64,000 nucleotides of DNA from Pseudomonadota bacterium (GTDB lineage Bacteria; Myxococcota_A; Polyangia; GCA-2747355), in contig JADJTL010000001.1 of assembly GCA_016711215.1 (NCBI GenBank), forward strand, positions 1,144,067 through 1,208,066, given 5' to 3'. A program made the position numbers and the translations under genes. Below the pieces are notes generated by a model. The model ran no database searches. It was not told the origin of the DNA and saw only the letters and a list, made by a program, of their open reading frames with translations. How positions within the stretch are numbered: position 1 is the stretch's first letter; every line of letters starts with the position of its first letter. Positions 3,642 to 62,012 of this stretch are shown piece after piece.

Positions 3642-6600
3642 TCAGCCGAGCTTGGGGTTGGGGTTGCGCACGCGCGCGAGGTAGGTCGTGCGCGGCTTGA
3701 GATTCATGTCGCCCAGCACCGCGTAGTTGCGGTCGCGCTGCTTGAGCTGCGCGACGCGGCTCCGCGGGTCATTGAGATCGCCGAAGACGATCGCCTCGGT
3801 CGGGCAGACCTGCTGACAGGCCGGCACCACCGTGCCGTCGGCGATGGTATCGCTGCCCGCGGCCTTGGCCGCGAGGCGGGCGCCGTTGATGCGTTGCACG
3901 CAGTAGGTGCACTTCTCCATCACCCCGCGAAAGCGCACGGTGACGTCGGGGTTGCGCTGCATCGCCAGCAGCGCGTTCTGCCGGTCGTGCTCGGCCTGGT
4001 AGTTGAAGAAGTTGAAGCGCCGCACCTTATATGGGCAGTTGTTGGCACAGTAGCGTGTGCCGATGCAGCGGTTGTAGGCCATGTCGTTCAGCCCCTCGGG
4101 GCTATGCGCGGTGGCGCCGACCGGGCAGACGCTTTCGCAGGGCGCCGTCTCGCAATGCTGGCAGGCCATCGGCTGCGTGACGGGCAGGGCGTCGTCGCTC
4201 TCGCCGCTGAAATAGCGATCGAGGCGAATCCAATGCATCTCGCGGCCGTTGAGCACGCGCTCCTTGCCGACGACGGGGATCGTGTTCTCTGACTGGCAGG
4301 CGATCGTGCAGGCGTTGCAGCCGATGCAGCTGCTGAGGTCGATCGTCATGCCCCATTGCCGACCCGTCGTGGGGTTGGGCGGCTCCCAGAGCAGGGTCTT
4401 GACCTCGGCGTCGGGCAGGAGCTGCGCGGCGCGGGCGAAGTCAGGGTCGCGCTGGTACTGCGCCAGCGTTGCCTCCTGCACGATCGGGCGGCGCTGGCCG
4501 GTCAGGGGCTCGATCAGCGTGCCGTGGTCCTGCGTGCAGGCGAGCGCGTAGTGCCCGCGCAGGTGGCGCAGCCTGACGCCTTGGGCGAAGCGCGAGGCGT
4601 CGACGGTGCGCAGCGCGTTGGCGTTGAAGCCGCGGCCGTCGGCCACCGGGCCGCTATGCTGGCGACCATAGCCCAGCGCCAAGGCGACGCAGCTCTCTGC
4701 GACGCCCGGCGTGATCCAGACGGCGGCCTGCAGGCGGCGACCATCATGTTCGAGCTCGATCAGCTCCTCGGACTTGAGCCCGAGCCGGCGCGCCGTGGCT
4801 GCCCCGATCAACGCCGCGTTATCCCACGTCAGCTTGGTCACCGGATCGGGCAGCTCTTGCAGCCAGGCGTTGCCGGCGAAGCGGCCGTCGTAGAGCGTCG
4901 CGTCGAGCTGAAAGACCAACTCCAGGCGTTGGTCGGTGGGGGCCGGTCTATCGAGGGCGTCCTGCGGGCGCGCCGTCCGGGCGTCCCGATCGGCCGAGCC
5001 GCTCGAGCCCTCGAGCGTTGGTCGCGCTGCGGGCCTGCCGGCGAGCTGGGTCGCAAGCGCCTGCCACTCGTAGGTGGGGCTGAGCGCGGCGAGCTCAGCC
5101 GGGCGCTGCCCGTCATGGACCAGCGCGCGCCAGCGACGCTCGTGGCTGGCCTCATCGGCCCCGGCCGGCAGCAGGCCTGCATAGGCTGCGGTCGCCGGGC
5201 GGCGCAGCAGCGTGTAGCCATCGTGGAGCTTAGAGGCGATCAGGCGCGCAACGAGCTCGATCGGCGAGAGCGAGGCGAAGAGGGGCGCGATCAGCGGCTG
5301 CTGCACGCTGATCGTGCCGTCGGCGGCGCGGAGATCGCCCCAGGCCTCGAGGAAGTGGCTTTGGGGCACGACCCAGCGCGCCAGCGCCGCGGTCTCGTTG
5401 GCCGTGGGGCAGAGGTAGATCGTCGACGGGACGCGGCGCAGCAAGGTGCCGAACTCGAGATCGGCCGGCGCGTCATAGACCGGGTTTCCGCCGACGATGA
5501 CCAGCGATGAGACGGTCTCGGCCCGCAGCGCCGCGGCGAGGGCCTCGATCCCCTCGCAGTCCGCTGCCAGGTCGGGGTAGTAGCTGACCGTCTGGCCGAC
5601 GCTGCCGAGCAGCGCGTTGGTCAGCTGGCCGAGCGCATGGACCAGCGGCGGCTGCCCTTCGCCAACGATGATCAACGCCCGCCCGCGATGGGCGAGGAGG
5701 TCCTCGGCCAGCGCGCCAATCCAGCGCTGATGCGCGGCGCTCGGCGCGCGCGCCCGCAGGCGCGCCAGGAGCTGCTCGGCGCCGGCGGGCGCCGGCAGGG
5801 AAGGCGCGAGCTTGGCGACCAGGTCGGCGAGAAAGCCACCCACCTGCGAGGCCGCCAGGCGCAGGCGATTGTCGGCGTTCATCCCCGTGACGGTGAAGGC
5901 TGGCTCGACCACGTAGAGCCTGTTCATCCCGTCGCGCGGGCTGGTGAGGCGCCGTCGTTGGGCAAAGGCGCGGGCCTGGCGGACGACGTCGCCCTCGAGG
6001 CCGAGCGGATCGGCGTCGAGGGCTAGCACGACATCGGCGCGATCGAGCGCATAGCAGGGCCGAGCCCCCTTCAGCCCGACGAGTGCTGCGCCGGCCAGGC
6101 TCTGCCGTGGTTGGGCCGCGTCGTGGACGTAGAGGCGTGCGTGCGGGTAGCGAGCGCGAAGCTCGCCCAGCAGCGCGTGGAGCGTCGGCGAACGGAGGTC
6201 CTGCAGCAGCAGCGCCAGGCCGCGCCCCTGCTGCCGCTCGAGGCGCGCCGCGAGCCCGGCCAGCGCGGCATCGCGCTCGCGCGTGGAGACCGAGCGGTCG
6301 CCGAGGCGCGTGCGCCGCAGGCGCTGCGGGTCGTAGAGATCGAGCACGCTCGCCTGCAGGAAGGTGTCGGTGGCGCCGCGACTCATCGGATGGTCGGGGT
6401 GGCCCTCGATCTTGGTCGGGCGTCCGTCCTGGCTCTCGACGAGCAGGCCGACCACCCCCCCCGTGAGCTGGGCGGCGGTGGCGTAGTAGCGCGGCTGTCC
6501 AGGGACCAGATCCTCGGGCCGCTGGTTGAAGGGCAGGATCAGCTCGCGTGGCTTGCGCACGCAGCCGCTCAGCGTGGCGCCGGCGAGGGTTAGCGAGGCG

Positions 6601-9046: not shown

Positions 9047-9095
9047 CGCACGCCACGCACGCCACGCACGCCACGCACGCCACGCACGCCACCTT
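9047..9095. repeat. Tandem repeat, 9-bp unit CGCCACGCA, about 4.5 copies
   Basis: Direct reading: cgcacgccacgcacgccacgcacgccacgcacgccacgcacgccacc; intergenic. Confidence 0.85.
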
Positions 9096-23506: not shown

Positions 23507-24148
23507 GTGAGGGACATGGTTGGGAGTGAGCGGCGGCCGATGGTGATCGCGATCGCGGGTGGCACCGGTTCGGGCAAGACGACGGTAGCCCGCGAGCTGG
23601 CGGCGGCCTTGCCGGCAGGGAGCGCGGTGATCCTGGATCACGATGCGTACTATCGCGATCAGCGGACGCTGCCCCTGGCCGAGCGCGCCCAGCTCAACTT
23701 CGATCATCCCGATGCGCTGGAGACAGAGCTCCTGGTGACCCACGTCGAGACGCTGCGGCAGCGTCAGCCGGCGGAGCTGCCGGTCTACGACTTCAAGACC
23801 CATCGCCGGCGCGCGGAGACGCGCCGCGTCGAACCGGCGGCCGTGGTGATCGTCGAGGGCATCCTCGTGCTGGCGCACGAAGCGCTCCGCGCCCTCTGCG
23901 ACCTCAAGGTCTTCGTCGACACCGATGCCGACCTCCGCGTGATGCGGCGCGTGCGGCGCGACATGGAGGAGCGCGGGCGCAGCTTCGCGAGCATTCGCGA
24001 GCAGTACTATGGCACCGTGCGCCCGATGCATTTGCAGTTCGTCGAGCCCTCCAAGCGCTGGGCGGATCTGATCATTCCCGAGGGCGGTCGCAACGCCGTC
24101 GCGCTCGACACGATCGTCGGCAAGCTGCTACATGTCCTCGGCGGATGA
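23507..24148 (+). CDS. udk: Uridine kinase
   Basis: P-loop IAGGTGSGKTT; length and overall pattern of uridine/cytidine kinase. Confidence 0.8.
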   Translation: MRDMVGSERRPMVIAIAGGTGSGKTTVARELAAALPAGSAVILDHDAYYRDQRTLPLAERAQLNFDHPDALETELLVTHVETLRQRQPAELPVYDFKTHRRRAETRRVEPAAVVIVEGILVLAHEALRALCDLKVFVDTDADLRVMRRVRRDMEERGRSFASIREQYYGTVRPMHLQFVEPSKRWADLIIPEGGRNAVALDTIVGKLLHVLGG

Positions 24149-24193: not shown

Positions 24194-24266
24194 GCGAGCG
24201 CGATGGATGCCAGCGAGCGCGATGGATGCCAGCGAGCGCGATGGATGCCAGCGAGCGCGATGGATG
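24194..24266. repeat. Tandem repeat, 19-bp unit GCGAGCGCGATGGATGCCA, about 3.8 copies, immediately upstream of tRNA-Val
   Basis: Direct reading of the sequence. Confidence 0.85.
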
Positions 24267-24286: not shown

Positions 24287-24361
24287 GGGCGGTTAGCTCA
24301 GCGGTAGAGCGCCTGGTTTACACCCAGGTGGTCGGGGGTTCGAACCCCTCACCGCCCACCA
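24287..24361 (+). tRNA. tRNA-Val (anticodon TAC)
   Basis: GGGCGGTTAGCTCAGCGGTAGAGCGCCTGGTTTACACCCAGGTGGTCGGGGGTTCGAACCCCTCACCGCCCACCA; acceptor GGGCGGT/ACCGCCC; anticodon loop TTTACAC. Confidence 0.85.
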
Positions 24362-29055: not shown

Positions 29056-30459
29056 TCAAGGCATCGCCACCGAGGGCCCGCAGGGTGGGCGTTGGTCCTG
29101 GCGACAGAAGGGCAGCGTGCGGCAGACCGCGCTGCTCGCCGCGGCGGCGGTGCAACGTAGCATCATGCGGCTCGCCGGGTAGTCGAGATCAGTCTCGAAA
29201 AAGGACAGCCACTCGCCGCCCAGCACGATGTCGAGATCGGGAACGCGAGGCCGCAGCTCCTGGCGCAGACCCTGGAGCAGCGGCGAGCGATCGTCGACGA
29301 TCGCGAAGGCGATCGGGGCGCCGACCCAGGCCACCGCCGCGCCTCGTTCGTCGCGATCCTGCGCCGCATCGAGCGCAAAGCGGTCGAGACGCAGCAGGCG
29401 CCAGCGCCGCGCGAGCTCGCCGCAGGGGCCAAAGTTACGCCGCGGGTCGTCGAGCGTGCGGGTCATGTCGGCCACCAGGGCGGCACGCGGAATCGACACC
29501 AGCGAGACGATCTCGCTGCCGGTTGGCAGATAGAGCGTGTGCCCGGGCGCTTCCTGCAGCTCGGGATGGCGCGCCTGGAGCTGCTCGAAGGCCGAGCGAG
29601 CGATCAGCGGAGTGCCCACCCCCGAGGCCACGATCGCCACCGCGTCGAGACCGCTGGCCGCGGTCGGTGGTGCGGCGTCACCGGTGGGATCGTAGTCGTC
29701 GGGCAGCAGGCAGAGCGGCGCGATCACGCGGCGGCCGGGGAGCACCGTGCTCTCGCCGGCGATCGAGGCGCGCCCGCCGCCGCGCAGCCCGCCGGCGAAG
29801 ACGGCCGCGCAGCGCTCACTGCGCAGGCCGTCGGCGGTGACAAGGCGCGTGACGTCGCAATCGGCTGCCAGCTGGTCGTTGCTGCCCGCCAACTCGGAGC
29901 GCAACGTCAGCGCGCGGGGCGCGGCCGTGGCGCTGCCTCCGTCTGCTACCCCCAGGTAGTTGAGCGTGACGGCGAAATGCGCGAGGACGTCGACGCCGAG
30001 CAGCAGGTCGACGGCCAGCGGCGCATCAAGACCAATCGGACCGGCGCTGGCCTCGAGCAGCTCGAGGTCGTGAAAGACGAAGCGCGTGACGGTTGGACGC
30101 AGCGCATCGAGCAGGCGCAGCGCCACGCGCCGGCGACGACTGCGGAAACCCTCGCTCTGCCTGAGTAAGGTCAGCGACGCGGCGTTGTCGACGACCGCGC
30201 GCAGCGGGGGACCGTCGTCGACGCGCACCCGCGCGACGAGCACGCCCTGTTCGAGGGTGGCCGGAATCGGCTCGCCAAGAAAGCCCTCGTAGCGCAGCTC
30301 ACCGCAGCCGCCGAGGCCCAGCGCGAGCAGCACTGCGCATGCTGCGCATGCCGCGCATGCTGCGCACGCTGCGGAGCGTCGCCCTGGTCGGCCAGCGCCT
30401 TGAGGCGCTCTAGGCCGGGTCCTTGAGCTTGCTCCGCAGCTTCTCGACGAGTGCGCCAT
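29056..30459 (-). CDS. Hypothetical lipoprotein (start uncertain)
   Basis: Lipobox-like LLALGLGGC; N-terminal region encoded by a 9-bp GCATGC-type repeat; the tracked N-terminus overlaps the MlaC-like gene; no known catalytic motif. Confidence 0.45.
   Translation of the reverse strand: MAHSSRSCGASSRTRPRAPQGAGRPGRRSAACAACAACAACAVLLALGLGGCGELRYEGFLGEPIPATLEQGVLVARVRVDDGPPLRAVVDNAASLTLLRQSEGFRSRRRRVALRLLDALRPTVTRFVFHDLELLEASAGPIGLDAPLAVDLLLGVDVLAHFAVTLNYLGVADGGSATAAPRALTLRSELAGSNDQLAADCDVTRLVTADGLRSERCAAVFAGGLRGGGRASIAGESTVLPGRRVIAPLCLLPDDYDPTGDAAPPTAASGLDAVAIVASGVGTPLIARSAFEQLQARHPELQEAPGHTLYLPTGSEIVSLVSIPRAALVADMTRTLDDPRRNFGPCGELARRWRLLRLDRFALDAAQDRDERGAAVAWVGAPIAFAIVDDRSPLLQGLRQELRPRVPDLDIVLGGEWLSFFETDLDYPASRMMLRCTAAAASSAVCRTLPFCRQDQRPPCGPSVAMP
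30335..30375. repeat. Tandem 9-bp repeat (ATGCGCAGC-type, about 4 copies) at the 5' end of the lipoprotein gene
   Basis: Direct reading: gcgcatgctgcgcatgccgcgcatgctgcgcacgctgcgg; encodes AACAACAACAACA in one frame and MRSMRGMRSMRS in another. Confidence 0.8.
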
Positions 30460-44468: not shown

Positions 44469-45986
44469 GTGGCGCTCTCAGCGGCGGCGGCGGATGCGCA
44501 GCCCGTTCTGCGCCCTGGCGTTAGCGCGCAGGAGCGGCGCAGGCGAGCCTTGCGGCGCGGCGCTGCGCTGGCCGTGGCCAGCGTTGGGTTGACGGCCTGC
44601 GCCTCCTCGCGCCCCCTCTCCCCAGGCGCCCGCCCGGCGCTGTCGCCAGGGCTGTCGCCAGGCGCGTCGGCCACGAGGTCGCGCGTCTCGCTCCGACCCG
44701 GTGGCGCGCCGGCGACCCACTACGGGCTGGCGTCACCCTGGCTACCTCAGGGCGTCGCCCTTCGCCTTGCCGCCGCAGTCGGGCGCGCAGCGCGCGATGC
44801 GCAGGTGCCGTCGCCATGGCTCGACCGCGAGGCGGTTCAGGCCGCGCGCGACGTTTGCCGCGGACTGCCGCGCGCAGGCCCGCCGTCCCCCCGGCTGCTG
44901 GAGTTCGCGCTGCGGACGCGGGGATTGATCGAGCCGTTGCCCGATGTCGTGGTCGGCGACTGGCTGGCTACCGGGACTGAGCATGCCGCGGAGGCGCTGC
45001 GAGAGCGCCTTGCCGGCCTGCTGAAGCGGACGCGCTACGCCCGGGCGGGCGTCGCGGTCTGTCGATCGCTGCTTCGACCCGAACGCCGGCGCGTCGTCGC
45101 GCTGCTCTTGGAGAGCGCTGTGCGACTGGAGCCAGTGCCGCGCCAGGCGGCACTGGGGCAGCGCCTGCGCCTCCGCTTCCTGCGCCGCCAGCCCGGTCCC
45201 GCCCTCGCGTTGACCGTGACCTTTCCAGACGGGAGCGTGCGCGGCCTGCCGCTGCAGGTCCGCCAGGGCGGCTACGATGCCCTGGTCACCTGCGAAGCGC
45301 GCGGAAGGTACCGGATCGAGATCAGCGGGGAGGGCCCCTACGGCGACGAGGTGCTGGCGAACTTCCCGCTCGATTGCGCCGCCGCGCCGCCCACCACGCT
45401 CGAATTGCCGCCGAGCGCGCCGACGCTTGGGGCTGGGCCATCGACTGGGCTATCGACTGGGCCATCGACTGGGCTATCGACTGGGCCATCGACTGGGCTA
45501 TCGACTGGGCTATCGACTGGGCCCGCCGGATCGACGGCGGAGCAACTCGAGGCGGAGCTGTCGCTGCTGACGGCGACGCTACGCAGCCGATCGGGTCGGG
45601 CGGCGCTCGAGCCCGACGCGACGCTGGCCGGCGTGGCCCGCCGGCACGCGGAGGACATGCTAGCGCAGGGCTATCTCGGACATCGGGCGCCGCGCTTTGG
45701 CGGGCCGGTCGAGCGATTGCGCCGCGCTGGCCTGGCCTGTGCCGTGCTGCGCGAGAACGTCGCGCGTGGCTACGCTGTAGACGAGCTGTTGCACGCGTTG
45801 GCCGAGAGCCCTGCCCACCGCGCCAACCTGCTCGCCGAGGACGTCACGACCCTCGGCAGCGGCCTGGCCATTGACAGGGAGGCTCAGCCGCCCGTGCTCT
45901 TCGTGGCCCAGCTCTTCGCGGGGGGCCCCTGCACGCGTGTCACCCCCACGCCTGCTGCCTCCACGCCCGTCGCCCCCACGCGTTGA
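44469..45986 (+). CDS. Lipoprotein with C-terminal CAP (YkwD-like/SCP) domain and internal GPSTGLSTG repeat
   Basis: Lipobox LTAC; C-terminal HAEDMLAQGYLGHRAP...RENVARGY...SPAHRANLL matches the CAP/YkwD pattern. Confidence 0.6.
   Translation: MALSAAAADAQPVLRPGVSAQERRRRALRRGAALAVASVGLTACASSRPLSPGARPALSPGLSPGASATRSRVSLRPGGAPATHYGLASPWLPQGVALRLAAAVGRAARDAQVPSPWLDREAVQAARDVCRGLPRAGPPSPRLLEFALRTRGLIEPLPDVVVGDWLATGTEHAAEALRERLAGLLKRTRYARAGVAVCRSLLRPERRRVVALLLESAVRLEPVPRQAALGQRLRLRFLRRQPGPALALTVTFPDGSVRGLPLQVRQGGYDALVTCEARGRYRIEISGEGPYGDEVLANFPLDCAAAPPTTLELPPSAPTLGAGPSTGLSTGPSTGLSTGPSTGLSTGLSTGPAGSTAEQLEAELSLLTATLRSRSGRAALEPDATLAGVARRHAEDMLAQGYLGHRAPRFGGPVERLRRAGLACAVLRENVARGYAVDELLHALAESPAHRANLLAEDVTTLGSGLAIDREAQPPVLFVAQLFAGGPCTRVTPTPAASTPVAPTR
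45430..45522 (+). repeat. In-frame tandem repeat, 12-bp unit GGCCATCGACTG/GGCTATCGACTG, about 7-8 copies, inside the CAP-domain gene
   Basis: Direct reading; encodes (GPST/GLST) repeats. Confidence 0.85.
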
Positions 45987-46042: not shown

Positions 46043-46074
46043 GCCGCGACAGACCGCGACAGACCGCGACAGAC
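46043..46074. repeat. Tandem repeat, 10-bp unit CGCGACAGAC, about 3 copies, upstream of mtnP
   Basis: Direct reading: gccgcgacagaccgcgacagaccgcgacagacgggg. Confidence 0.8.
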
Positions 46075-56020: not shown

Positions 56021-56620
56021 ATGGTCGAGGCAGCAGAGGTCCTAGCGTTTTGGTTCGGCGAGATCCGCGCGGATGGAAGCGTCGACGGCCAGCGCGCCGC
56101 GCTGTGGTGGAAGAAGGATCCCCTGACCGACGAGACCATCCGCGGGCGCTTCGAGCCGCTGGTGCGGCAGGCTGCGTCGGGAGAGCGCGACAGCTGGGCA
56201 GAGACGGCAGAGGGCCGGCTGGCGCTGATCATCTGCCTCGATCAGTTCCCCCGCAATATCTACCGCCAGGACCCACGCGCTTGGGCCTTCGACGCGATCG
56301 CCCAACGCCTCTGCCTGGAGGGCCTGGACCGCGGCCACGATCAGCGGCTACCGGTGATCCAGCGCGTCTTCCATTACATGCCGCTGGAGCACGCCGAGGA
56401 TCGCGACTTGCAGCAGCGCTGCCTCGAGCGCTTCGAGCAGCTACAGGTCGACGCGCCGCCGGCGCTGCAGGAGGCCTGCGCCGCTTACCTGAGCTACGCC
56501 GAGCAGCATCACGCGATTATCCAGCGCTTTGGCCGCTTTCCGCACCGCAACCAGGTTTTGGGCCGGAAGTCGACCGAGGAGGAGACGGCGTTTCTCAAGC
56601 AACCCGGGTCGTCATTCTGA
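56021..56620 (+). CDS. DUF924-family protein
   Basis: DQFPRNIYR-type motif and length typical of DUF924. Confidence 0.55.
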   Translation: MVEAAEVLAFWFGEIRADGSVDGQRAALWWKKDPLTDETIRGRFEPLVRQAASGERDSWAETAEGRLALIICLDQFPRNIYRQDPRAWAFDAIAQRLCLEGLDRGHDQRLPVIQRVFHYMPLEHAEDRDLQQRCLERFEQLQVDAPPALQEACAAYLSYAEQHHAIIQRFGRFPHRNQVLGRKSTEEETAFLKQPGSSF

Positions 56621-56754
56621 CCTCGGGTCGTCGTTCTGACCTTCCCACGGCGAGCCGGCGTCGCTCCGGAGGCGAGCGCCCTGCCGCGCAACGAGACGGC
56701 TATTGACAGCCCGCGCGCAGGTTGCTCTACTGCGCCGCCGCCACGAGGGAACGC

Positions 56755-57318
56755 ATGTACGATACCTCCGACTTCCGCAAGGGACTGAAGGTCCTGATCG
56801 ACGGCCAGCCGTATATCGTCGTCGATTTTCAGTTCGTCAAGCCGGGCAAGGGCGTGGCCTTCACGCGCGCGCGCGTCAAGAACATGCTGACCGGCTCGGT
56901 GCTCGACAAGACCTACCGCTCCGGCGAAAAGCTCGAGCCCGCCAACATCGACGAGCGCCAGATGCAGTACCTCTACCAAGAGGGAGAGAACTACTGCTTC
57001 ATGGACCAACAGAGCTTCGATCAGGTCTTCGTGCCGGGGGAGATCCTCGGCGACAGTGCCAAGTACCTCTCGGATAACCTAGAGGTCTCGGTCGTCTTTT
57101 TTGCAGAGCGCCCCGTCGACGTGACCTTGCCGAACTTTGTCACACTCGAGGTGGTCGAGACCGACCCCGGTTTCCGCGGCGACACGGCGACCGGCGCCAC
57201 CAAACCCGCGCGGCTCTCGGCGGGCGCGGTGATCAACGTGCCGCTCTTCGTCGAGCAGGGCGAGTGGCTCAAGGTCGATACCCGCACGGGCAGCTACGTC
57301 GAGCGCGTGAAGCGCTGA
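56755..57318 (+). CDS. efp: Elongation factor P
   Basis: MYDTSDFRKGLKVLIDGQPYIVVDFQFVKPGKGVAFTRARVKN N-terminus with the conserved KPGKG loop; start at internal Met. Confidence 0.9.
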   Translation: MYDTSDFRKGLKVLIDGQPYIVVDFQFVKPGKGVAFTRARVKNMLTGSVLDKTYRSGEKLEPANIDERQMQYLYQEGENYCFMDQQSFDQVFVPGEILGDSAKYLSDNLEVSVVFFAERPVDVTLPNFVTLEVVETDPGFRGDTATGATKPARLSAGAVINVPLFVEQGEWLKVDTRTGSYVERVKR

Positions 57319-57422
57319 CGCAATTACGTCGAGCGCGTGAAGCGCTGACGCAATTACGTCGAGCGCGTTACGTCGAGCGCGTGAAGCGCTGACGCAATTA
57401 CGTCGAGCGCGTGAAGCGCTGA
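57295..57422 (+). repeat. Tandem repeat, 30-bp unit TACGTCGAGCGCGTGAAGCGCTGACGCAAT, about 4 copies, duplicating the last codons and stop of efp
   Basis: Direct reading: the first unit is the efp 3' end (YVERVKR stop); further full or partial copies follow until 15 nt before the epmA ATG. Confidence 0.9.
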
Positions 57423-57432
57423 TCCCCTGACG

Positions 57433-58719
57433 ATGGCCACGGCACGCTGCCTCTGCGCCGAGCTCGGTCCCGAGCGCCTGGCCCAGGGGGAGGCCTTCGT
57501 CTGTGGGCGCGTGTTGGGCGTCGATCCTGCGCGGCGTGAGCTGATCGTCGTCGACCGCTCAGGTCGGGCCTGCGTCGCCTTACCGGAGCCCTTGCCGCTG
57601 CCGAGCCCGGGGGACATCGCGCGCCTCGAGCTGGGCCCCGCGTGGCCGGCCTGCGCCGCCGCTCTTCAGGTGCTGACGCCCTATCGTCGCGCCGAGCCCT
57701 TTCCCTCGCCCGGCGCGGATTACTATCGGCTGAACGCGGGCACCAGCAGCCGCGCGGAGCGGCTTCGCTTGCGCGCGCGTTTGTTGGCCGCCGTGCGCGG
57801 GTTCTTCGACGCAAGGGGCTTCGTCGAGATTCAGAGCCCGCAGCGCGTCGCCTGTCCGGGGCTAGAGCCGCAGCTCCTGGCCGAGCCGGCGGGGGAGGGG
57901 TTCTTGATCACCTCCCCCGAGTATCAGCTCAAGCGCCTGTTGGTCGCCGGTTTCGAGCAAATCTACTTTCTCGGCGGCTGCTGGCGCGCCGACGAACGCG
58001 GACCGCTGCACCTCAATGAGCTCTGCATGCTCGAGTGGTACCAGGCCTACGATGAGCTCGAGGCGCTGCTGCTGCTGACCGAGGCGCTGCTGCGCGCGGT
58101 GGCGCAGCAGGTCCTCGGCACGCTGCGACTGCGCTGGGGCGGTATGGAGGTCGATCTCGGACAGCCCTTCCGCCGCCTGAGCGTCACGCAGGCGCTGCGC
58201 GAGCTCGCCGGGCTGCAGCTCCGCGGGCCGCTCGACGATCCGCGGATGCTGCGTGAGGCCGCGCTGGCGGCGGGTATCGGCCCCTTCGCTGCCGACGCCG
58301 ACTACGACGAGGTCTTCTCGCGCATCGTCCTCGAGCGCATCGAGCCAGCCCTGGCGACGATGGGCGCCGTCTTCTTCACCGACTTCCCGGCCCCGCTCGC
58401 CGCGCTGGCCCGCCGCCACCCGCGCGATGCAGCGCTGGCGCGACGCTCTGAGCTCTATGTGGCGGGCGTCGAGCTGGCCAACGCCTTCGAGGAGCTCACC
58501 GATCCAGACGAGCAGCTCGCCCGACTCCGTGCTGATCAGGCGCTGCGCGCGCGCCGTGGGCTGCCCATCTACCCGATCGATCAACGCTTCATCGAGGCGC
58601 TGCGCGAAGGCATGCCACCGAGCAGCGGTATCGCCCTCGGCGTCGACCGCCTACTGCTGCTGCTGAGCGGCGCGAGCCACATCGACGAGACGGTGGCCTT
58701 CGCCACCCCTGAGCTTTGA
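57433..58719 (+). CDS. epmA: EF-P lysine aminoacylase EpmA (GenX/PoxA, lysyl-tRNA-synthetase-like) with N-terminal extension
   Basis: Class II aaRS-like core (FVEIQSP, ELCMLEWYQAY, GIALGVDRLLLLL); directly downstream of efp. Confidence 0.75.
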   Translation: MATARCLCAELGPERLAQGEAFVCGRVLGVDPARRELIVVDRSGRACVALPEPLPLPSPGDIARLELGPAWPACAAALQVLTPYRRAEPFPSPGADYYRLNAGTSSRAERLRLRARLLAAVRGFFDARGFVEIQSPQRVACPGLEPQLLAEPAGEGFLITSPEYQLKRLLVAGFEQIYFLGGCWRADERGPLHLNELCMLEWYQAYDELEALLLLTEALLRAVAQQVLGTLRLRWGGMEVDLGQPFRRLSVTQALRELAGLQLRGPLDDPRMLREAALAAGIGPFAADADYDEVFSRIVLERIEPALATMGAVFFTDFPAPLAALARRHPRDAALARRSELYVAGVELANAFEELTDPDEQLARLRADQALRARRGLPIYPIDQRFIEALREGMPPSSGIALGVDRLLLLLSGASHIDETVAFATPEL

Positions 58720-60304: not shown

Positions 60305-60383
60305 GCGGCCCGCGTTAGCCGCAGTCGGCGCGGGGCGCCCGCCCCCGACGGGGTCGACCAGATCAGTCGCGGGTGCGACCGGA

Positions 60384-62012
<1,629 letters not shown>

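Follow-up and report, generated by a model that had tools for sequence, protein, structure and literature searches.

A probable minisatellite derived from the end of efp between the efp and epmA genes of a group of uncultured bacteria

Background

In the stretch of DNA analysed here (64,000 nucleotides, hereafter the window), the gene for elongation factor P (efp) is followed by the gene of its presumptive modifying enzyme (epmA), and the short gap between them is filled with further copies of the 3' end of efp, including its stop codon. This arrangement raises the question of what the copies are: they might be a regulatory device acting on the downstream gene, a safeguard of termination, an error of assembly, or an unstable repeat with no role of its own. 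An earlier note, made from the sequence of this DNA, had left the choice between an effect on transcript structure, a consequence for stop-codon readthrough and a replication-slippage hotspot with variable copy number. We approached the question by dissecting the array, by comparing the equivalent junction in related assemblies, and by searches for structures and signals in the RNA.

Results and discussion

Anatomy of the array

The array is 128 nt long and is laid out as 30+30+14+30+24 nt, with copies that are mutually 100% identical, as seen by direct reading of the sequence, by Tandem Repeats Finder (TRF) and by pattern search. Its repeat unit consists of the 24-mer TACGTCGAGCGCGTGAAGCGCTGA, which corresponds to the last seven codons of efp (YVERVKR) plus the TGA stop codon, followed by the spacer CGCAAT. 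The individual features are:

57295..57422, + strand: whole tandem array, of which only the first 24 nt are coding
57295-57318, + strand: copy 1, the genuine end of efp, followed by the spacer CGCAAT at 57319-57324
57325-57348, + strand: copy 2, followed by the spacer CGCAAT at 57349-57354
57355-57368, + strand: partial copy of 14 nt, TACGTCGAGCGCGT, delimited from the sequence, TRF and frame analysis
57369-57392, + strand: copy 4, followed by the spacer CGCAAT at 57393-57398
57399-57422, + strand: copy 5, the last, an exact 24-mer
57423-57432, + strand: linker of 10 nt, TCCCCTGACG, between copy 5 and the epmA ATG at 57433

A pattern search of the window recovers four exact matches to the 24-mer (starting at 57295, 57325, 57369 and 57399), compared to none in 100 dinucleotide-preserving shuffles and none expected by chance. 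Even with up to three mismatches allowed, the unit matches the 64-kb window at the array locus only, and a search of a viral contig collection with the unit returned no match. TRF describes the same region as a repeat of period 30 present 2.5 times and a repeat of period 44 present 2.0 times, each at 100% identity. With 4.27 units of 30 nt, the array thus displays head-to-tail units in the range of about 10-100 nt at a frequency beyond chance, as is characteristic of VNTRs. The tandem repeat described in the earlier note is therefore real, and its coordinates, unit and copy number were correctly given; the distance of 15 nt that it placed between the array and the epmA start is in fact 10 nt.

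The reading frames of the copies differ. Copy 2 lies in the efp frame and reads RNYVERVKR*, with a UGA ten codons past the efp stop, while the 14-nt partial unit shifts the reading frame such that copies 4 and 5 are displaced from the efp frame by +2. The shifted frame still meets a TGA soon, and stop codons sit in two of the three frames of the repeat unit. The proposal that the efp stop is followed by several in-frame copies ending in TGA hence holds for copy 2, and fails for copies 4 and 5. The layout can be described either as an 84-nt array with one 44-nt tandem duplication, or as five units with one 16-nt deletion, and as far as can be judged from the arrangement of the units both of these putative histories fit equally well. 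Two further properties of the sequence are relevant to its origin. Firstly, the terminal 24 nt of efp themselves hold an imperfect 9-nt tandem, namely GTCGAGCGC followed by GTGAAGCGC (encoding VER and VKR). Secondly, the segment 57399-57432 amounts to the complete efp-epmA junction of the closest relative, L014 (see below), except for one base (GTG in the window, GTC in L014).

Flanking genes and the transcription unit

The elements that surround the array are:

56693..56754, + strand: conserved block TTGACAGCCCGCGCGCAGGTTGCTCTACTGCGCC...GAGGGAACGC, then ATG (from the sequences of the window and of the relatives L001, L002 and L014)
56755..57318, + strand: efp, elongation factor P of 187 aa, with the Pfam domains EFP_N, EFP and Elong-fact-P_C
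57433..58719, + strand: EpmA-like EF-P lysine aminoacylase of 428 aa, with the Pfam domain tRNA-synt_2 (class II synthetase-like)

Both gene assignments of the earlier note are upheld by Pfam and NCBIfam, with the EpmA match falling just under its cut-off. The efp product scores 256.8 bits against the NCBIfam model TIGR00038 (cut-off 185.8) and has the KPGKG loop lysine. For the EpmA-like protein the best NCBIfam match is EpmA/GenX (TIGR00462) with 279.7 bits, slightly below the cut-off of 286.9, and an NCBI MAG contains an identical protein under the name 'EF-P lysine aminoacylase GenX'. Its catalytic class II domain starts around residue 104 and is preceded by an N-terminal extension (about 95 aa) that is common to EpmA relatives of 400-460 aa and absent from the 325-aa E. 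coli enzyme. This extension (window 57433-57740; GRVLGV...ELIVVDRSG...) is possibly a remnant of an OB-fold.

The gene upstream of efp codes for a DUF924 protein (56021-56620; Pfam). The block between it and efp, which contains TTGACA and a GAGGGA Shine-Dalgarno sequence, is kept even though the preceding gene differs, being that of the DUF924 protein in the window and L014 and that of a YchF GTPase in L001 and L002. Going by its sequence and conservation, this block probably comprises the promoter, leader and Shine-Dalgarno sequence of efp; a consensus promoter scan did not flag it. The promoter and terminator scan found neither a sigma-70-like promoter nor an intrinsic terminator in the efp-epmA junction. 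Given the conserved upstream block and the lack of such signals in the junction, efp and epmA most likely form one transcription unit. No Shine-Dalgarno-like motif precedes epmA in 57399-57432.

The junction in related assemblies

Relatives were gathered by a scan of a genome collection (L001), a scan of metagenomes (L002, L003), protein searches, contig look-ups and a cluster listing, with most of the junction alleles stemming from members of the EF-P cluster. At least 16 independent assemblies of related uncultured bacteria, drawn from NCBI, JGI, ENA and Logan, carry the same junction in differing states. Several of these records are labelled as wastewater or activated-sludge metagenomes, and the names of homologues place the group near Kofleriaceae (Myxococcota). 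Exact-protein look-ups with the EF-P and EpmA of the window yielded no further assembly of the same strain; both proteins were found in one NCBI MAG only, so that the copy number in the window rests on a single assembly. The states of the junction are:

L014, the closest relative (EF-P 98% identical): one copy, consisting of the efp end, TGA, TCCCCTGACG and ATG
L025: two copies with the spacer CGCAATGT, the second copy ending in TGG
L017 and L021: three copies of about 32 nt with the spacers CGCAATCT and CGCGGCG, the last copy degenerate (TCCGTCGAGCACGTCAAACGCTGG)
L015, L016, L018, L019 and L022: four complete copies of about 32 nt, the extra unit with the spacer CGCAGTGT
L005, L020, L023 and L024: contigs that break off within the array and agree with the four-copy allele
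L001 and L013: efp end, spacer GGCGGCGC, then A(CGTCGAGCG)x4 CTGA
L004: arranged as in L001 and L013, with the 9-mer CGTCGAGCG present three times
L011: the 9-mer CGTCGAGCG three times, one of them bearing a substitution
L002, L008, L009, L027 and L028: four diverged 9-mers, with the end CGA
L003 (outgroup): unique spacer of about 170 nt between efp and epmA
L006 (outgroup): epmA abuts efp
P0007 (outgroup): 8-nt gap, as read from the contig gene map only

Copy number at this locus thus varies among close relatives, the second hallmark of a VNTR. Three units (L017, L021) and four units (L015, L016, L018, L019, L022) are found behind an identical EF-P protein, and three and four 9-mers occur at 99.4% efp DNA identity (L004 versus L001 and L013). 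The comparison of the junction across relatives that had been proposed earlier hence reveals differing copy numbers at the equivalent locus, with 1, 2, 3 or 4 units of about 30 nt, or 3 versus 4 9-mers, and supports the suggestion of a slippage hotspot. The length of the amplified unit is itself variable across the alleles (9, 30, 32 or 44 nt); the copies are 6-8 nt apart in every allele. The spacer CGCAAT of the window has counterparts in CGCAATCT of the L015 lineage and CGCAATGT of the L025 lineage, and the spacer CGCGGCG is common to the L002 and L015 lineages. Older arrays have a degenerate copy next to epmA, with the stop TGA changed to TGG or CGA and the hairpin described below gone. Seven of eight lineages have kept two or more copies, over approximately 10-12% divergence of efp DNA. 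The repeat is absent from the outgroups L003, L006 and P0007 (52-59% EpmA identity).

Certain contigs show irregularities of their own. The ENA contig L012 (around 690-718) breaks inside the repeat and ends in CTGTCTCTTATACA, which we take to be a remnant of a Nextera adapter, and is uninformative for copy number. In L001 (around 5250-5290) the epmA frame overruns the expected stop, with a probable indel error near ...HIDETVAF. In L004 (764-2155) the gene caller has stretched epmA upstream across the repeats to 463 aa, overlapping efp.

History of the array

We constructed a neighbour-joining tree of efp DNA (405 nt, single gene), with L006 as the root. In this tree the window has the single-copy L014 as its sister (bootstrap 0.96), and the remaining array-bearing lineages form the sister clade to this pair; a grouping of the array-bearers to the exclusion of L014 obtains a bootstrap of 0.02. 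The spacers CGCAAT and CGCGGCG are not derivable from the flanks of the single-copy sequence. Taken together, the topology of the efp tree and the spacers common to different lineages suggest, as the most economical history, that the clade probably inherited an array with two or more copies from its common ancestor. Thereafter, the lineage of the window probably expanded and homogenised its array, L014 collapsed to one copy, and the other lineages diverged. Recombination of the first with the last copy would give exactly the L014 sequence. This history, with an ancestral array and a later collapse, rests on the 405-nt tree and on similarities between spacers of 6-8 nt. Alternatively, arrays could have been gained twice independently, with spacers that converged; in both cases the junction sequences point to an unstable locus.

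Additional hints of exchange within the array come from codon 185 of efp, where the synonymous variants GTG and GTC are swapped between the coding and the downstream copies when the closely related alleles L015 and L025 are compared. This pattern fits unequal exchange inside the array. The 100% identity of the copies in the window implies that the expansion there is recent, and the spacer motifs shared across lineages suggest an old array that expands, contracts and homogenises.

Comparison with known repeat systems

The closest parallels of the array are bacterial intergenic VNTR or minisatellite loci, such as the MLVA loci of Yersinia pestis (PMC3689786), in which units some tens of bases long likewise follow each other head to tail at one locus. 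In both cases copy number varies among close relatives, copies of recent origin do not differ from each other, and the edges carry partial units. Unlike these VNTRs, the unit of the present array is made of the last seven codons and the stop of the upstream gene, and different lineages have amplified differing sub-units.

The mycobacterial interspersed repetitive units (MIRU-VNTR), which are said to have been described by Supply et al. in 1997, are comparable in being minisatellites of variable copy number between the cistrons of operons, and in touching both the upstream stop and the region of the downstream start. MIRUs are a dispersed family with dozens of loci, and ORFs internal to their units are thought to maintain coupling. 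In contrast, the unit of the array is a copy of the end of the adjacent efp gene, is confined to one locus in 64 kb and carries stops in two of its three frames, and an assignment to MIRU-type dispersed repeats was accordingly rejected. A search of the array for small relay ORFs that could hand ribosomes on to epmA found just 3-codon VKR ORFs and one out-of-frame ORF of 42 aa.

The REP/BIME elements of enterobacteria are imperfect palindromes with hundreds of dispersed copies and are mobilised by RAYT transposases. They share with the array the presence of G+C-rich stem-loops just past a stop codon within an operon, sometimes in tandem, which could stabilise upstream mRNA or interfere with termination. 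The array differs from them in that its hairpin is short (9 bp), not dispersed in the 64 kb and not conserved between alleles; together with the weak folding scores of the unit, L001 and L015 given in the next section, this speaks against membership of the REP/BIME class. A phase-variable contingency locus was likewise rejected, as both ORFs are unaltered by copy number and the scan found no promoter-like site.

RNA structure and the possible effect on epmA

The strongest rival explanation, which we nevertheless consider unlikely, is that the array is a selected regulatory element. It could work like a rheostat, uncoupling the translation of epmA from that of the highly expressed efp, or as a set of REP-like stem-loops that stabilise the efp part of the transcript, with copy number setting the EF-P:EpmA ratio. 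The folding of the repeat, which the earlier note had singled out as a check, offers little to this proposal or to the idea of an altered transcript structure: the fold of the whole array barely beats shuffled sequences (z = -2.1). A single unit is predicted to form a 9-bp hairpin with the stop codon inside it (-14.3 kcal/mol, z = -1.5), while the L001 array and the degenerate last copy of L015 yield z = +0.4 and z = +0.06, respectively. Folding of the array, of single units and of the alleles of relatives recovered no significant structure common to the alleles, and apart from the efp-derived core the alleles have neither sequence nor structure in common, even the unit length being inconstant. 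An intrinsic terminator or attenuator can be set aside, since there is no terminator-like site in 57290-57440 and no T run (a U-tract in the transcript) after any copy. The same is true of a known Rfam family: the only hit of the array, to COG3610-DE (E = 0.05), scores 25 bits where the threshold is 73.5. Variation of copy number among close samples, and the single copy with which the closest relative manages, also speak against a selected element.

There are nevertheless features that the regulatory proposal would accommodate. The efp stop and the epmA ATG are separated by 114 nt in the window and by 10 nt in the single-copy state. In the single-copy junction of L014 the SYV codons of efp are predicted to pair with the epmA AUG (-16.6 kcal/mol, z = -2.4); the version in the window has a different 5' flank. 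A 10-nt gap, the lack of a Shine-Dalgarno sequence and an AUG predicted to be paired with the last efp codons correspond to the geometry expected for coupling by RNA unfolding (PMC12548453), and the L014 junction has the layout typical of translational coupling. Unlike such junctions, the array places 114 nt before the AUG together with a copy of the pairing partner, the one adjoining the epmA ATG, that is never translated in the window. The efficiency of coupling drops steeply with the distance between stop and start (review, PMC12548453). On the minisatellite reading as well, in view of the 114-nt distance, the missing Shine-Dalgarno sequence and the structured region, the array may weaken the translational coupling of epmA to efp and lower the synthesis of EpmA relative to EF-P. 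If coupling exists, the repeat would therefore disrupt rather than mediate it, and an effect on epmA would be the sole plausible phenotypic effect of the array.

That seven of eight lineages retain two or more copies also favours a regulatory role, as this is longer than one might expect for a purely neutral insertion of 30-100 nt and makes some selective value possible. So does the state of the epmA-adjacent copy in older arrays (TGG or CGA in place of the stop; z = 0.06 without the hairpin), which fits selection for an accessible start; this loss of stop and hairpin could equally be neutral decay. On balance, nothing indicates a dedicated function of the array. The more specific proposal that it is a heritable, fast-mutating tuner of EpmA synthesis, operating through distance and RNA structure at a start codon without a Shine-Dalgarno sequence, appears very improbable to us.

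Assembly artefact, back-up stops and att sites

A further alternative is that the array, or at least its exact shape of 30+30+14+30+24 nt, was created by the assembly or polishing of a long-read MAG. The EF-P and EpmA of the window are known from a single NCBI MAG, and the name pattern of the sister MAG L001 suggests that it belongs to a set of activated-sludge MAGs that were assembled from Nanopore reads with CANU and polished with Racon, medaka and Illumina reads (PMC8012365). The apparent frameshift near the 3' end of the L001 epmA indicates that such assemblies do hold indel errors. Several observations argue against this origin. Long reads easily span 128 nt, the copies are 100% identical and free of homopolymer-type errors, and clean 30-nt units are not what polishing errors produce. 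Short-read assemblies of relatives, made independently (JGI, ENA, Logan), have equivalent arrays as well as long-read ones, which makes an artefact unlikely as an explanation of the phenomenon. We hold the chance that it accounts for the array in the window, or for its exact shape, to be slight.

Least credible of all are the notions that the copies serve as back-up stops against read-through of the efp UGA-C, or that they are the scar of an integrative element at the efp 3' end: copy 2 does provide an in-frame UGA, and the consequence for stop readthrough raised in the earlier note stands to that extent, but one extra stop would suffice, the later copies are out of frame, and the last copies in relatives lack a stop (TGG or CGA). 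Duplicated gene 3' ends are typical of att sites, and the array does duplicate one, but there is no integrase and no element DNA between the copies, only 6-8 nt, and the unit matches neither the viral contig collection nor any other part of the window. An attL/attR duplication was hence rejected, the neighbours being just the DUF924 gene, efp and epmA.

Other tandem repeats in the window

The window is rich in short perfect tandem repeats, with 26 rows reported by TRF. The last codons and TGA of the DUF924 gene are themselves duplicated at 56605-56642 (19 nt twice with one mismatch, CGGGTCGTCATTCTGACCT and CGGGTCGTCGTTCTGACCT), and L014 has a single copy at this place. On the minus strand, the stop codon of a gene ending at 60384 is covered by a 21-nt unit present about 2.2 times (60351-60394; CGACTGATCCGGTCGCACCCG and CGACTGATCTGGTCGACCCCG). 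Together with efp, three stops thus lie inside tandem duplications within 4 kb. Of the 41 gene stops tested in the window, 2 lie inside tandem repeats against a background of 1.0% (P = 0.06), the more diverged repeat at 60351-60394 having been seen by eye in addition to these two; the enrichment of stop-spanning duplications is suggestive only. Such duplications are likely due to tolerance, as translation still ends at the first stop and the protein is unchanged.

Further arrays are found elsewhere in the window. A perfect 19-nt repeat (GCGAGCGCGATGGATGCCA) is present 3.8 times at 24194-24266, downstream of a gene ending at 24148 and about 20 nt upstream of tRNA-Val(TAC) at 24287-24361. Short arrays, perfect or near-perfect, also occur at gene edges or in intergenic gaps at 45433-45523 (12/24 nt, 7.6 times), 9047-9092 (9 nt, 5.1 times), 30333-30373 (9 nt, 4.6 times) and 46044-46074 (10 nt, 3.1 times). 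Short tandem duplications seem to arise unusually readily in this genome.

Origin and significance of the junction array

Taking these lines of evidence together, we conclude that the array is most likely a slipped-strand VNTR or minisatellite, non-coding, that lies in the efp-epmA intercistronic gap and derives from the efp terminus. It is an ordinary, unstable tandem repeat rather than a new kind of element. Going by the pattern of the alleles, copies would be gained and lost by slipped-strand mispairing or unequal recombination. Slippage might be favoured by the imperfect 9-nt direct repeat in the efp end (GTCGAGCGC and GTGAAGCGC), and by the G+C-rich hairpin (about -14 kcal/mol) that is predicted to hold the stop codon. 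EF-P is unchanged because the first stop codon is intact, and equivalent duplications within efp would be expected to meet counter-selection.

The junction of these uncultured bacteria offers a natural series of a gene-terminus duplication at different stages, with 1, 2, 3, 4 or 4.3 copies, or with expansion of a 9-mer. The series shows that stop-spanning duplications are a tolerated class of mutation, and that downstream copies decay, losing the stop and the hairpin. In practical terms, such repeats mislead gene callers, as with the prolonged epmA ORF of L004, and typing of the locus might help to tell apart strains of this uncultured lineage, which occurs in wastewater and activated-sludge metagenomes. 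If copy number modulated EpmA levels, a hypermutable repeat would be linked to the modification of EF-P. Were the tuner reading true, copy number would set the beta-lysylation of EF-P and hence the translation of polyproline proteins, populations would be heterogeneous in translation capacity, and the clade-wide retention of the array would be explained.
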